64,000 bases of DNA from Escherichia coli. GTDB taxonomy: Bacteria; Pseudomonadota; Gammaproteobacteria; Enterobacterales; Enterobacteriaceae. The notes beneath the pieces are model-generated. The model worked only from the letters and a program-made list of their open reading frames with translations, made no database searches and was not told the DNA's origin. The stretch lies in NCBI RefSeq assembly GCF_003334335.1, contig NZ_QOWQ01000014.1. One strand, written 5' to 3'. The position numbers and the translations under genes were made by a program. Positions 7,124 through 13,382 of this stretch are shown here, in pieces. Every line of letters begins with the position of its first letter. Position 1 is the stretch's first letter.

Positions 7124-7543
7124 TTAAAGAGATTCGTTCAGCCAGCTATCGAACGGCGCTTTCGGTACTGCGCCATTAAGCATGTCGACAACCTGACCGT
7201 TTTTGAAAATCATGATCGTCGGTATACTACGAATTCCAAAGCGACTGCTCAATTCACGTTCAGCTTCGGTATTCACTTTCACAAAGCGCACTTTACCGCT
7301 ACGCTCTTGCGCGACATCTTCAAAAATTGGTGCGAAATTACGGCAGGGGCCGCACCACGGTGCCCAGAAGTCGATCACCACAGGTAGATCATCCTTCAGC
7401 AATTTGTCGAGTGTTTCACCGGTCGCATTAATCACCTCTCCGTCAAACAAGTCGTGACCGCAGCGTCCGCATTTTGCCGCATCTTCGATCCGATCGTCGG
7501 GAATGCGATTGATGGCCTGACAATGGGTACAAACGGTATTCAT
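7124..7543 (-). CDS. trxC: thioredoxin 2 with N-terminal zinc-binding CxxC pairs
   Basis: 139 aa [15 protein letters not shown]...CGRCGHDL...WAPWCGPC recognised as TrxC. Confidence 0.95.
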
Positions 7544-7749
7544 AACTAACCTCGGGATGAGTAAGGAGACTTATCGGCAACGACGCCGGTATGTTTCTAA
7601 TATGTTACATATTATCGGGGACATTGTTCCAGACAACAATCTGTTTTATTCAATAGGTATGATAGTCGCAGGCTTTGGTACGAAATCATGGCGAACCGCG
7701 CGGACTTCGGGTAATCTGCGCGCTTCGCGCAGCGCTGGTGGAGAAAAGC

Positions 7750-8787
7750 ATGAACGATGAAATGAAAGGTAAAAGCGGCAAGGTCAAAGTGATGTATGTC
7801 CGCAGTGATGATGATTCTGATAAACGTACCCACAACCCGCGTACCGGGAAAGGGGGCGGGCGTCCAGGAAAATCTCGTGCTGACGGTGGCCGTCGCCCCG
7901 CCCGCGATGACAAACAGAGTCAGCCCCGTGACCGCAAGTGGGAAGATTCGCCGTGGCGCACGGTTTCCCGCGCGCCGGGTGATGAGACGCCGGAAAAGGC
8001 CGATCACGGTGGCATTAGTGGTAAAAGTTTTATTGATCCGGAAGTGTTGCGTCGTCAGCGTGCGGAAGAAACCCGCGTCTACGGCGAAAATGCATGTCAG
8101 GCACTTTTCCAGAGCCGTCCGGAAGCGATTGTTCGCGCCTGGTTTATCCAGAGTGTAACGCCGCGTTTTAAAGAAGCTTTGCGCTGGATGGCAGCAAACC
8201 GCAAAGCGTACCATGTGGTGGATGAAGCGGAATTGACAAAAGCGTCAGGCACGGAACATCACGGCGGCGTTTGCTTCTTGATCAAAAAGCGTAACGGTAC
8301 AACCGTGCAGCAGTGGGTAAGCCAGGCAGGCGCGCAGGATTGCGTTCTGGCACTGGAAAACGAATCTAACCCGCATAACCTGGGTGGCATGATGCGCAGC
8401 TGCGCGCACTTCGGCGTGAAAGGTGTCGTGGTGCAGGATGCGGCACTGCTGGAGTCGGGGGCGGCTATCCGTACCGCAGAAGGCGGCGCAGAGCACGTTC
8501 AGCCGATTACTGGCGACAACATTGTTAACGTGCTGGATGATTTCCGTCAGGCAGGTTACACCGTAGTGACCACTTCCAGCGAGCAGGGTAAACCGCTGTT
8601 CAAAACTAGTCTGCCAGCGAAAATGGTACTGGTGCTGGGTCAGGAATATGAAGGGTTACCGGATGCCGCACGCGATCCGAACGATCTGCGCGTGAAGATT
8701 GACGGTACGGGCAACGTTGCCGGGCTGAATATCTCTGTCGCAACCGGCGTTTTGCTTGGTGAATGGTGGCGTCAGAATAAAGCCTGA
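7750..8787 (+). CDS. yfiF: SpoU/TrmH-family RNA 2'-O-methyltransferase YfiF with basic low-complexity N-terminus
   Basis: ORF 7675..8787; ATG at 7750 ([14 protein letters not shown]...) gives 345 aa. Confidence 0.88.
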
Positions 8788-8834
8788 TAAATCAGCCGGG
8801 TGGCAACTCTGCCATCCGGCATTTCCCCGTAAAT

Positions 8835-9524
8835 TTACTCACTCTCTGCCGGTAATACTGGCATCCAGTCAATCGGCGTCTCGCCACGTTGTTCCAGCCA
8901 CTGATTTGCCAGCACAAAATGGTTGCAGCCAAAGAATCCACGATGCGCCGAAAGCGGCGACGGATGCGGTGCTTTCAGTACATGATGGCGTTGCTTATCT
9001 ATAATCGCCCCTTTCTTTTGCGCATGCGATCCCCACAACAAAAACACCACGCCTTCGCGATGCTGGTTAATCAGGCTGATCACTTTATCGGTGAAGGTTT
9101 CCCAGCCGAGGCTGGCGTGGGAATGCGCCTGACCTGCGCGTACCGTCAACACAGTATTGAGTAGCAGAACGCCCTGACGCGCCCAGCTTTCAAGATAACC
9201 ATGATTAGGGCGGGTGAAGCCCGGAATAGTATTTTCCAGCTCTTTATACATATTCAATAATGACGGAGGAATGGCAATGCCGGGACGAACGGAAAATGCC
9301 AGACCATGCGCCTGTCCCGGTCCGTGATAAGGATCCTGGCCGAGAATCACCACTTTAACGTCACCCAACTCTGTAAAGCGGAACGCGTTAAAGACATCTT
9401 TTTGTGGTGGGTAGATAGTGACGCCGGACTGCCGCTCGCTGGCGACGGTCTGAAGGGTATTAAGAAAATAGGGTTGCTGCTTCTCTTCAGCCAGCACGTC
9501 ATGCCAGGTTAATTCGTTAGCCAT
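8835..9524 (-). CDS. ung: uracil-DNA glycosylase
   Basis: 229 aa [27 protein letters not shown]... recognised as Ung. Confidence 0.96.
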
Positions 9525-12047: not shown

Positions 12048-13382
12048 TTACTCTTCTGTCGTTTGCGGTGGCACGCCCGTTCCGCTTGGTTTACGGCGCT
12101 TACCAATATTTTTGGTGTCGCGATGGCGTTTTTTCACCCGCGGCTTCTCTTTCTCTTTAGCTTTTTTCTTCTCAGCACGTTTAGCCAGTACTTTCTTCGA
12201 TGGCTTGCCGGTCTGCTTTTCGCTTGGCGCACGCGTTTTCGGGCGTAACTCATCAATAACGCGAGCTTTAATTGGCTCTTCAATATAGCGGCCTACTTTA
12301 CCCAGCAGCAGATGGTCATGGGCTTCCACCAGCGAAATTGCGGTGCCTTTACGACCGGCGCGCGCGGTACGTCCGATACGGTGCAAATAAGTATCGCCAC
12401 TGCGCGGCATATCGAAGTTAAAGACGTGGCTGACGTCAGGAATGTCGATACCGCGCGCGGCAACATCGGTTGCGACCAGTACGTTTACGCGACCTTCGGT
12501 CAAACGCTTGATCGCTTCGTTACGCTTGCCCTGTACCATCTCACCTTCGAGATAGCAGTTGTTGATGCCCGCTTCGCGCAGCCAGTTTGCCAGCTCATGC
12601 ACACGCTCACGCTTACGCACAAACACAATTGAGCGGGTCGCTTCCGGCTGTTTTAACAGATGCACCAGCAACGCGGTTTTATGCTCAAGATCATCGGCGC
12701 GGTAATACCACTGATGAATTTTTTTGCGCTCACGGGTGGAGGGATTGGCAGAAACTTCCACCGGATCTTCCAGCAGACGCTCGGCAAAGTCCTGAATCGC
12801 ATCGCCTTCCAGCGTTGCCGAAAAGAGCAGGGTCTGTTTACGCCAGCGCGTTTCGCCAGCAATATGTTCGATATCCTGAGCGAAGCCCATATCCAGCATA
12901 CGGTCTGCTTCGTCGAGGATCAGCGTTTCAACCGCGCGGCAATCGAAGTTCTCTTCTTTTATGTATTGCAGCAGACGTCCGGTCGTGGCGACCACGATGT
13001 CCTGATTTTCGCTGAACACTTCCGCGTGGTTCATATAGGCTACGCCGCCGGTGATGGTGGCGATATCCAGATGCGTATGTTTCGCCAGTTCGCGGGCATG
13101 ATCGGCCACCTGCATCGCCAGCTCGCGAGTTGGGGTGAGGATCAAAATACGCGGCGGACCGGATTTCTTACGCGGGAAATCGAGCAGGTGCTGCAACGCT
13201 GGCAGCAGATACGCCGCCGTTTTACCGGTGCCTGTCGGCGCAGAACCGAGTACATCACGGCCATCGAGCGCAGGCGGAATGGCGGCAGCCTGAATGGCGG
13301 TCGGGCGAGTGAAACCTTTATCCTGGAGGGCTTCCAGCAGGCTTTCGTCGAGTTCAAGTTCGGAAAAAGTCGTTACAGTCAT
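12048..13382 (-). CDS. srmB: DEAD-box ATP-dependent RNA helicase (50S ribosome assembly)
   Basis: 444 aa [31 protein letters not shown]... with DEAD box and lysine-rich C-terminal tail. Confidence 0.95.

Follow-up and report, generated by a model that had tools for sequence, protein, structure and literature searches.

The N-terminal residues 1 to ~105 of Escherichia coli YfiF form a translated and net-basic arm, predicted to be disordered, on an RlmB-like, two-domain 2'-O-ribose methyltransferase. We infer, with a probability of about 0.55, that this tail serves as an electrostatic arm recruiting RNA or pre-ribosomal particles to the enzyme. The tail is real but has been known since 2007, when a positively charged, presumably disordered extension of YfiF was described by Tkaczuk et al. 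(PMC1829167). What is new here is the comparative evidence for its translation, a map of three modules within it, the finding that the spacer conserves its net charge, and naturally occurring relatives that are tail-less or tailed at the C-terminus and can be used as controls; these points are design details for experiments and fall short of a discovery. Few SPOUT methyltransferases of E. coli still lack an assigned substrate, YfiF being among them, and locating the RNA affinity within the protein would guide truncation and crosslinking work toward its target.

The yfiF gene and its folded core

In the 64,000-nucleotide stretch of E. coli DNA analysed (the window), yfiF occupies positions 7750..8787 on the plus strand (345 codons plus stop), with trxC on one side and ung on the other. 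All 5426 complete E. coli genomes compared carry the gene, annotated as 'yfiF: tRNA/rRNA methyltransferase', and its product matches the YfiF equivalog model NCBIfam NF008117 (PRK10864) with 667.6 bits against a cutoff of 267 (protein residues 1-345, profile positions 1-344). An earlier note on this DNA had placed a charged extension of about 110 residues ahead of the SpoU domain. The charge and the length are borne out, but the two are not adjacent: an L30e-like substrate-binding domain (SpoU_sub_bind, Pfam PF08032, E = 1.2e-14) intervenes at residues 110-181 (8077..8292, plus strand), followed by the SpoU methyltransferase (SPOUT) domain at residues 199-336 (8344..8757, plus strand; PF00588, E = 1.6e-31).

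Recognition of the SpoU_methylase domain by the PF00588 profile places YfiF in the SpoU/TrmH family. The SpoU motifs, defined as N-P-x-N-x-G-x-x-x-R (motif 1), G-x-E-x-x-G (motif 2) and S/G-L-N (motif 3), are found at residues 206-216, 295-302 (LGQEYEGL) and 325-327 (GLN), respectively. Among 145 family members N207, P208, H209, N210, G212, R216, E299 and L326 are nearly invariant; N327 is invariant in these sequences, and conservation reaches 90% or more at N207, R216 and E299. The motif residues agree with those given by Tkaczuk et al. 2007 (PMC1829167). The core was predicted by AlphaFold2, run with the 145-sequence alignment, at pLDDT > 90, and it matches the folds of RlmB, RlmR, TsnR, AviRb and TrmH with a probability of 1.00. 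A sequence search of the PDB returned no solved structure containing YfiF.

RlmB (YjfH; 23S rRNA Gm2251; PDB 1gz0) shares with YfiF the order of an L30e-like domain followed by a SPOUT/SpoU domain. It ranks first both by sequence (E = 2.7e-19, YfiF 108-342 against 1gz0 chain residues 13-251) and by fold (Foldseek E = 3e-21); the L30e-like domain of YfiF aligns with the N-terminal domain of 1gz0, and YfiF retains N207, R216, E299 and N327 of the motifs. The likeness has its limits, as the YfiF core is 28% identical to E. coli RlmB, and RlmB lacks an N-terminal tail whereas the L30e-like domain of YfiF is preceded by ~105 extra residues. Tkaczuk et al. 2007 (PMC1829167) regard YfiF as an RlmB paralogue of gammaproteobacteria. 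Assignment as an RlmB equivalog was rejected, with 117.8 bits falling below the 160.15 of TIGR00186 and 92 below the 366 of NF008386.

Translation start and selection

The start codon, on whose position the earlier note had made the existence of the tail depend, is placed at 7750 by comparative evidence. A Shine-Dalgarno sequence, GGAG, can be read at 7740..7743 (plus strand), 6 nt 5' of the ATG. In a scan of a genome collection, limited to the best 80 loci, all from Enterobacterales and thus suited to codon analysis rather than to taxonomic range, GGTGGAG or GGAGG followed by ATG was found at the same position in 79 of the 80. Pooled Nei-Gojobori estimates of dN/dS, from 338 non-independent pairs, were 0.107 for the first conserved island of the tail, 0.31 for the spacer, 0.126 for the second island and 0.11 for the core. 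This comparison of sequences strongly supports translation of the tail, with the start at 7750. The reading in which the start is misannotated and the tail not made is ruled out, since the ATG and the Shine-Dalgarno sequence are conserved and dN/dS is 0.11 from codon 1.

Composition and predicted disorder of the tail

Residues 1-109 have no Pfam domain match and consist of 43% K/R/D/E (R16, D13, K11, E7; net +7), 28% G/P/S and 14% hydrophobic residues, compared with 20% charged and 32% hydrophobic residues in the core. Among 55 crude window genes, only yfiF and srmB (in its C-terminal tail) contain a 100-aa stretch that is at least 42% charged, and that of yfiF is the less hydrophobic of the two. 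AlphaFold2 gave pLDDT < 50, only a proxy for disorder, to about residue 95, and no secondary structure from residue 1 to ~92; the first predicted helix spans residues 97-106. The disorder prediction proposed in the earlier note thus returned what that note had anticipated of an Arg/Lys/Asp-rich, probably disordered sequence. By the model, the disordered part of YfiF probably comprises ~95 residues, or ~105 when measured against RlmB. Compositional bias (R/G/D/S/P, few hydrophobics) together with the predicted lack of structure marks the segment as a putative disordered tail.

AlphaFold2 neither gave a confident structure for the conserved islands nor docked the tail onto the core, and Pfam and NCBIfam searches of the tail found no independent domain. 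The tail alone matches positions 1-109 of the NF008117 profile. In a tail-only homology search of word-based sensitivity, the matches were YfiF fragments from Enterobacterales only, with no other family among them.

Three modules within the tail

Alignment of 78 orthologues divides the tail into two conserved islands and a variable spacer. Island 1 (residues 1-35; 7750..7854, plus strand) is near-invariant, with pLDDT < 50. It runs from an 18-residue segment through the acidic run SDDDSD to NPRTGKG; a conserved 11-residue stretch stands ahead of the acidic run. Island 2 (residues 67-109; 7948..8076, plus strand) is likewise conserved and features a 10-residue block followed by a 26-residue one. 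It contains DPEVLRRQR, and its predicted helix (residues 97-106) would lead into the folded core. An SPW motif of this island recurs in remoter homologues of Orbales (Zophobihabitans, P0275), Pseudoalteromonas (P0274) and metagenomic clusters.

The spacer between them (residues 36-66; 7855..7947, plus strand) is an R/G/D-rich, mixed-charge segment that holds nearly all indel columns of the 78-orthologue alignment. It occurs in 76 distinct versions of 25-76 aa, that of E. coli being 31 aa and one from Pantoea 76 aa long, and is composed of 27% R, 16% G, 15% D and 3% K with almost no hydrophobic residues. Its net charge stays between +1 and +6 whatever its length, although the length triples; spacers of 68-76 aa carry +4, where a constant charge density would predict +9.8 at 76 aa. 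In Enterobacter wuhouensis (L011), tandem repeats of 15 nt are present in its counterpart. Spacer length drifts by indels at constant net charge, and at least one relative carries short tandem duplications there. Over the 78 orthologues the net charge of the tail is +6 to +11 (median +9) versus -10 to 0 (median -6) for the core.

Distribution of tails among YfiF-like proteins

Among 126 YfiF-like representatives, 56 have an N-terminal tail only (at least 60 aa), 49 have no tail, 11 have a similar basic tail at the C-terminus only (at least 40 aa) and 5 have both; the longest tail in the family is 364 aa. For all 126, the score against YfiF is roughly double that against RlmB. A neighbour-joining tree of the cores, used only for the position of RlmB, was star-like with RlmB as the outgroup. 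Overt RGG/RGPGG repeats are present in P0277 and P0281, and RD/DRPR repeats in P0247 and P0259. Cluster look-ups gave Sodalis, Symbiopectobacterium, Zophobihabitans, Pseudoalteromonas and a gammaproteobacterial metagenome-assembled genome (MAG) as source organisms; Shewanella, Arsukibacterium and a Dongiaceae MAG came in through a profile search.

The comparison with orthologues lacking the extension, suggested in the earlier note, can be made with two homologues whose tail-less state was verified by in-frame stops 13 and 3 codons 5' of the start. Since these two have no tail, the core can evidently work without it. One tail-less homologue shares 4 nt with the end of an rlmM-like gene, and one tailed homologue is flanked by cca-like and rsmB/F-like genes.

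RNA binding and a proposed role for the tail

In 2024, YfiF was reported as an in vivo RNA binder by OOPS and by iCLIP (rRNA, tRNA, csrB/arrS and its own mRNA), both carried out with the full-length protein, and deletion of yfiF was found to slow growth (PMC11066096). Ribosomal proteins and rRNA-modifying enzymes co-purify with the protein (PMC3384335). Its closest solved folds by Foldseek are RlmB, RlmR, TsnR/NshR, AviRb, YsgA and MRM3, all of them enzymes or factors with L30e and SPOUT domains that act on large-subunit rRNA. The earlier note had taken the substrate of YfiF as not established, and the literature searched, up to 2026, indeed reports no methylation target. E. coli 23S rRNA has three known 2'-O-methyl sites, all with enzymes (RlmB, RlmM and RlmE). 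This leaves no orphan 2'-O-methyl site on 23S rRNA for YfiF, a counterpoint to a recruiting arm.

As the core is net acidic and the arm net basic, it is most likely through long-range electrostatic affinity, supplied by the arm, that structured RNA would be recruited and held. Judged by the domain architecture, the bound RNA would probably be rRNA of the large subunit or pre-50S particles; both the RNA-binding role of the arm and the ribosomal identity of the RNA are inferred. The two conserved islands may add more specific contacts with RNA or with a partner. The occurrence of tails at either terminus among the 126 representatives fits a composition-driven function. As a counterpoint, the L30e-like domain could also be the RNA-binding element, the binding data having been obtained with full-length protein.

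Comparison with known systems

The suggestion of the earlier note that such a tail could mediate RNA or ribosome binding is plausible. Among analogues examined by experiment, the one closest to the proposed mechanism is Trm10, a SPOUT tRNA m1G9 methyltransferase whose flexible, basic and poorly conserved N-terminal extension resembles that of YfiF. The Trm10 extension binds tRNA alone with a Kd of 0.86 uM and contributes to activity (PMC3874184). It is ~73 residues long, without conserved islands or a mixed-charge spacer of the YfiF type, and Trm10 differs further from YfiF in belonging to another SPOUT clade, in being a monomer and in methylating a base.

The eukaryotic RlmB-clade enzymes MRM1/Pet56 and MRM3/RNMTL1 also carry N-terminal extensions. 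Such extensions include mitochondrial targeting sequences, a role inapplicable in a bacterium, and in the tail-only search no sequence similarity of the MRM1 and MRM3 extensions to the YfiF tail was found. Among the fold matches, PDB entries 7oi6 and 9hcd show MRM3 on assembly intermediates of the mitoribosomal large subunit.

Basic C-terminal tails, disordered and highly charged, are also present on the E. coli DEAD-box helicases SrmB, RhlE and DeaD, which remodel RNA and act on pre-ribosomes. These helicase tails bind RNA. The srmB gene (12048..13382, minus strand), with the other stretch at least 42% charged, lies 4 kb from yfiF; its product has a C-terminal tail rich in Lys, that of YfiF being N-terminal, Arg/Asp/Gly-rich and equipped with conserved islands. 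Eukaryotic RGG/GAR domains, such as that of the rRNA 2'-O-methyltransferase fibrillarin, and arginine-rich mixed-charge domains offer no more than an analogy, as R/G- or R/D-rich disorder on RNA-processing enzymes. Fibrillarin differs from YfiF in its Rossmann fold and its guidance by snoRNAs, and the E. coli YfiF spacer is just 31 aa long.

Alternative roles of the tail

The near-invariance of the islands exceeds what non-specific electrostatics would need and hints at a specific partner. A tail acting as a docking or localisation module would account for it: the islands would be short linear motifs for a protein partner (RNase E/degradosome, RNase R, RluC or a ribosomal protein), and the R/D/G spacer would partition YfiF into RNA-protein assemblies, in the manner of eukaryotic RGG/GAR and arginine-rich mixed-charge domains. 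The islands are constrained like the catalytic core, which is unusual for a purely electrostatic tail, and the spacer is R-rich and K-poor (27% versus 3%) with D/E in balance. Relatives have RD, RGG and DRPR repeat tails of up to 364 aa, and R/D dipeptide repeats condense in a length-dependent manner (bioRxiv 10.1101/771592). YfiF is also among the RNase E interactors enriched in large particles (PMC13106914), and interaction data group it with Rne, Rnr and RluC (PMC11066096). However, these data are high-throughput lists, possibly bridged by RNA; AlphaFold2 gives the islands no structure, the motifs are not common to other families (the tail-only search returning YfiF fragments alone), and the spacer of E. 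coli is short (31 aa). We regard docking as an unlikely main role.

A bolder form, which we hold to be unlikely as well, would make the tail a bacterial counterpart of GAR/RGG or arginine-rich mixed-charge domains. A charge-balanced R/D/G spacer of tunable length and two invariant motifs (KVKVMYVR and a 10-residue motif) would localise a paralogue of the large-subunit-type 2'-O-methyltransferases to RNase E or pre-ribosome assemblies, where it would have a conditional or substoichiometric target or be a non-catalytic assembly or dormancy factor. If this were true, the repeated gain of tails at either terminus and their expansion to 364 aa would reflect selection for localisation.

The basic tail could equally fold back on the acidic core as a regulator, which is a counterpoint to the recruiting arm. 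Such an intramolecular regulator, in which the arm lies on the core or SDDDSD mimics nucleic acid, would gate RNA access or methyltransferase activity, to be released by growth phase, the binding of a non-coding RNA or a similar cue. Tail and core have opposite net charges in 78 of 78 orthologues, a conserved acidic run sits within the basic tail, and RNA binding by YfiF differs between exponential and stationary phase, for which riboregulation was proposed (PMC11066096). Against this, AlphaFold2 did not dock the tail on the core, although the method handles fuzzy contacts poorly, and the basic C-terminal tails of other family members argue against a geometry-specific lid. We consider this role improbable.

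That much of the tail is low-complexity filler from slippage, tolerated as harmless only, is most improbable: the spacer is indeed indel-rich (25-76 aa), with 15-nt tandem repeats in the Enterobacter L011, tail-less homologues exist, and 49 of the 126 representatives have no tail, but even the spacer has a dN/dS of 0.31, is nearly devoid of hydrophobic residues and carries a net charge out of proportion to its length, and the extreme version, a wrong start, is refuted by the conserved ATG and Shine-Dalgarno sequence and a dN/dS of 0.11 from codon 1.

DNA features and overlapping reading frames

A promoter scan of 7450-8900 found no sigma-70 consensus promoter. A GC hairpin, CTGCGCG-CTT-CGCGCAG, lies in the 5' leader outside the tail (7716..7732, plus strand), in a block conserved across Enterobacterales. 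As a regulatory RNA it was rejected, its folding energy being no better than that of shuffles (z = -0.72) and a match in Rfam being absent.

The coding sequence of the tail, thought in the earlier note to be GC-rich and repetitive, is neither: its GC content is 57.2% in codons 1-109 versus 55.7% in the remainder of yfiF, the local peak of 64% at 7800-7999 is equalled by 63% at 8300-8499, Tandem Repeats Finder reported nothing on the tail DNA, and a repeat search gave only short two-copy chance matches. The same note had ascribed long spurious antisense ORFs to these properties. A spurious antisense ORF of 200 aa does exist at 7612..8214 (minus strand), codon-aligned with yfiF, but it is open because codons 1-165 of yfiF lack TTA, CTA and TCA, and not because of GC content or repeats. 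It extends well past the tail, open runs of its length are common in the window, and 59 of 77 orthologues have the antisense frame broken by a stop within codons 1-110. The ORF list further contains a spurious 120-aa ORF in the +1 frame of yfiF (7796..8158, plus strand). Both were rejected as genes and are regarded as artefacts, being unconserved, with selection acting in the sense frame. Frameshift sites in shortened database copies of yfiF are scattered over residues 79-99, with no slippery hotspot among them, and the frameshifted copies all end at 135 aa because of the +1-frame ORF.

Domain layout and translation start of YfiF

The yfiF gene is a 345-codon open reading frame (ORF) on the plus strand (7750..8787), identified from its translation and from the annotation in matched E. 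coli genomes (yfiF, 'tRNA/rRNA methyltransferase'). In the 7400-9000 region of the window it is flanked by trxC (7124..7543, minus strand) and ung (8835..9524, minus strand). A 1.5-kb query spanning yfiF found a match in 5426 of 5426 complete E. coli genomes, and the peptide quoted in the earlier note was found exactly in the translation. Pfam places an L30e-like RNA-binding domain (SpoU_sub_bind) at residues 110-181 and SpoU_methylase at residues 199-336, and detects no domain in residues 1-109, here termed the tail, as distinct from the core (residues 110-345). The best solved relative is the 23S rRNA methyltransferase RlmB (1gz0). Since the alignment begins at YfiF residue 108 (108-342 aligned) and at chain residue 13, YfiF is an RlmB-like protein with ~105 additional N-terminal residues.

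The tail is 43% K/R/D/E (net charge +7), 28% G/P/S and 14% hydrophobic, compared with 20% charged and 32% hydrophobic residues in the remainder of YfiF. Of the window's 55 crude genes, only two reach a charge content of at least 42% over 100 residues: yfiF, and srmB in its C-terminal tail. The YfiF tail is a real feature, beyond chance. AlphaFold2, run with a 145-sequence alignment, gave pLDDT <50 and no secondary structure to ~residue 92, a predicted helix at residues 97-106, and pLDDT >90 for both folded domains. Composition, Pfam and AlphaFold2 thus bear out the charged, probably disordered N-terminal extension described earlier, but not its placement directly ahead of the SpoU domain: the predicted disordered segment is ~95 residues long and precedes the intervening L30e-like domain. 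The DEAD-box helicase gene srmB (12048-13382, minus strand; NF008394, 817.9 bits) lies 4 kb from yfiF, and its Lys-rich disordered C-terminal tail (window ~12051-12245) is a useful internal comparator.

The best 80 loci in a scan of a genome collection were all from Enterobacterales (Escherichia to Erwinia, Pantoea, Hafnia and Serratia). All align from YfiF residue 1, with an ATG at the equivalent position in 79 of 80, preceded by GGTGGAG or GGAGG, and the first 18 residues, starting M-N/S-D-E, are nearly invariant. Pooled across 338 pairs of species, the Nei-Gojobori dN/dS was 0.107 for residues 1-35, 0.31 for residues 36-66, 0.126 for residues 67-109 and 0.109 for the core. The tail is also included in the profile of the NCBIfam YfiF equivalog model. 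Sequence conservation indicates that the annotated start is correct and that purifying selection acts on the sense frame of the tail. A start downstream of the extension, a possibility raised in the earlier note, was not found; the conserved ATG and Shine-Dalgarno sequence, with low dN/dS from codon 1, rule out the reading in which the tail is not made.

Modular organization of the tail

In 78 orthologues the core varies only from 240 to 245 residues, versus 96 to 154 for the tail, whose conservation is modular. Island 1 (residues 1-35) comprises a hydrophobic KVKVMYVR segment, an acidic run and NPRTGKG, and island 2 (residues 67-109) a conserved segment followed by the helix. Nearly all indels fall in the spacer between them (residues 36-66), seen in 76 distinct versions with lengths of 25-76 residues. 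The spacer is rich in R (27%), G (16%), D (15%) and S (10%), with only 3% K, and hydrophobics are nearly absent. Whatever its length, the spacer keeps a net charge of +1 to +6: versions of 68-76 residues carry net +4, versus +9.8 expected at 76 residues under constant charge density, and the extra material is near charge-balanced (+0.27 positive and +0.23 negative charges per residue). In an Enterobacter wuhouensis locus (L011, 3176-3273) the equivalent segment contains ~7 copies of a 15-nt tandem repeat encoding RDDRK/DRPR units, and the spacer may grow by tandem duplication. The whole tail has a net charge of +6 to +11 (median +9) and the folded core -10 to 0 (median -6) in the 78 orthologues.

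Distribution of tails in YfiF-like proteins

When 1.84 billion cluster representatives were searched exhaustively, 355 matched below 1e-30, and 126 of the best 150 contain full-length cores. All 126 score ~2-fold higher against YfiF than against E. coli RlmB. Family members with a name belong to Enterobacterales, Orbales, Shewanella, Pseudoalteromonas and Arsukibacterium, and one is from an alphaproteobacterial MAG. Of the 126 representatives, 56 have only an N-terminal tail (60 residues or more), 11 have only a C-terminal one that is similarly basic and non-hydrophobic (40 residues or more), 5 have both and 49 neither; C-terminal basic tails, 16 of 126 overall, span 43-160 residues (for example P0270, P0353, P0363, P0317 and P0268). 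Tails are sometimes overt peptide repeats, as in P0247 (~nine 30-residue units forming the longest tail, 364 residues), P0259 (DRPRFDRNEGGDRF units), and P0277 and P0281 (RGG/RGPGG units). An SPW motif recurs beyond Enterobacterales, and a word-based homology search with the tail alone retrieved YfiF fragments and no other family. Of three tail-less members checked at the DNA level, two are truly so, a stop lying in frame 13 codons 5' of the start in one and 3 codons in the other; the third was uninformative.

In L081 (359-2277), the final 4 nt of a gene with RlmM-type domains (RlmM_FDX, RLMM_N and FtsJ) are shared with a truly tail-less yfiF-like gene (258 aa, 1501-2277), whose in-frame stop lies 13 codons before the start; the overlap suggests co-expression with a 23S rRNA 2'-O-methyltransferase. 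In L085 (2142-6536), P0266, whose 110-residue tail is rich in RD/DRPR, is encoded in a run of same-strand genes. Upstream are a gene of the CCA-adding/poly(A) polymerase type and an uncharacterised 182-aa one that overlaps it by 4 nt, and downstream is an RsmB/F-type rRNA methyltransferase gene.

Proposed role of the tail

In 2007 Tkaczuk et al. (PMC1829167) described the N-terminal extension as positively charged and presumably disordered, and YfiF as a gammaproteobacterial RlmB paralogue that keeps all 2'-O-methyltransferase residues. YfiF was also listed as one of the proteins co-purifying with ribosomal proteins and rRNA-modifying enzymes (Sergiev and colleagues, PMC3384335). A 2024 study captured YfiF by OOPS as an in vivo RNA binder and placed its iCLIP sites in rRNA, tRNA, csrB/C, arrS, chiX and the yfiF mRNA itself. 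Eight knockouts of dynamically regulated, previously unannotated RNA-binding proteins were tested, of which loss of yfiF impaired growth most, and the methyltransferase role was still a hypothesis (PMC11066096). The literature searched contained no substrate assignment or tail experiment. The tail itself is already in the literature. What this analysis adds is a map of its modules, the constancy of spacer net charge, the occurrence of tails at one or other end of relatives, and relatives verified as lacking a tail, all of which help in designing experiments on the enzyme.

We favour, with a probability of roughly 55%, a basic arm that would draw RNA electrostatically to an otherwise acidic enzyme, the conserved islands contributing specific contacts. 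This reading draws on the opposite net charges of tail and core, the Arg-rich spacer lacking hydrophobics and conserved in net charge, the position independence implied by equivalent basic tails at either terminus, in vivo RNA binding by YfiF, and the relatives' gene context (the rlmM-like overlap in a tail-less member, cca-like and rsmB/F-like flanks in a tailed one). It also has a precedent in Trm10, whose flexible basic extension alone binds tRNA (Kd 0.86 uM, PMC3874184). The earlier suggestion of RNA or ribosome binding by the tail is a reasonable hypothesis. The RNA would likely be large-subunit rRNA or pre-50S particles, since these are where all solved relatives with the two-domain L30e+SPOUT architecture act (RlmB, RlmR, TsnR/NshR, AviRb, YsgA and MRM3, the last on mitoribosome assembly intermediates).

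A 2026 crosslinking/SEC-MS study counts YfiF as an interactor of RNase E in large particles (PMC13106914); that the tail is a partner-docking or condensate-targeting module is conceivable, though unlikely. We consider an intramolecular regulator improbable. Tolerated filler is more doubtful still, and its extreme wrong-start version is excluded.

Coding DNA, spurious ORFs and the leader

The description of the tail DNA as GC-rich and repetitive was not upheld: its GC content is 57.2% versus 55.7% in the remaining yfiF, the local peak of 64% is matched within catalytic-domain DNA (63%), and no tandem or meaningful direct repeats were found in it. Blaming this DNA for the spurious antisense ORF (7612..8214, minus strand, 200 aa) was likewise mistaken. 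The ORF is codon-aligned with yfiF, so that its stops correspond to sense TTA/CTA/TCA; because the earliest such codon is 166, the opening reaches far past the tail, and runs as long as this occur in 15 or more of the window's long ORFs. As a gene it was rejected: in 59 of 77 orthologues a stop interrupts it by codon 110. A +1-frame ORF (7796..8158, plus strand) is also spurious. Many 135-aa 'YfiF' database entries (P0124-P0156) are frameshifts into this frame at scattered sites (residues 79-99), sharing one stop because the frame is open to 8158; they are mostly singletons from read-archive assemblies, and sequencing error or sporadic pseudogene formation probably accounts for them. The Citrobacter amalonaticus reading frame (L032) is also truncated, to 64 aa.

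A perfect 7-bp GC hairpin (CTGCGCG-CTT-CGCGCAG; 7716-7732, plus strand) lies 7 nt upstream of the Shine-Dalgarno sequence, within a leader block (7705-7749, ACATCrGGTAATCTGCGCGC...GGTGGAG) conserved across ~80 Enterobacterales. It folds no better than dinucleotide shuffles (z = -0.72), and the leader gave no Rfam match and no nearby sigma-70 consensus promoter. YfiF is reported to crosslink to its own mRNA (PMC11066096). The genes trxC and yfiF form a divergent pair (7124-8787); in a Dub-seq overexpression study, fragments carrying both gave a synergistic fitness gain on potassium acetate, in which the authors suspect the shared intergenic region plays a part (PMC6338753).
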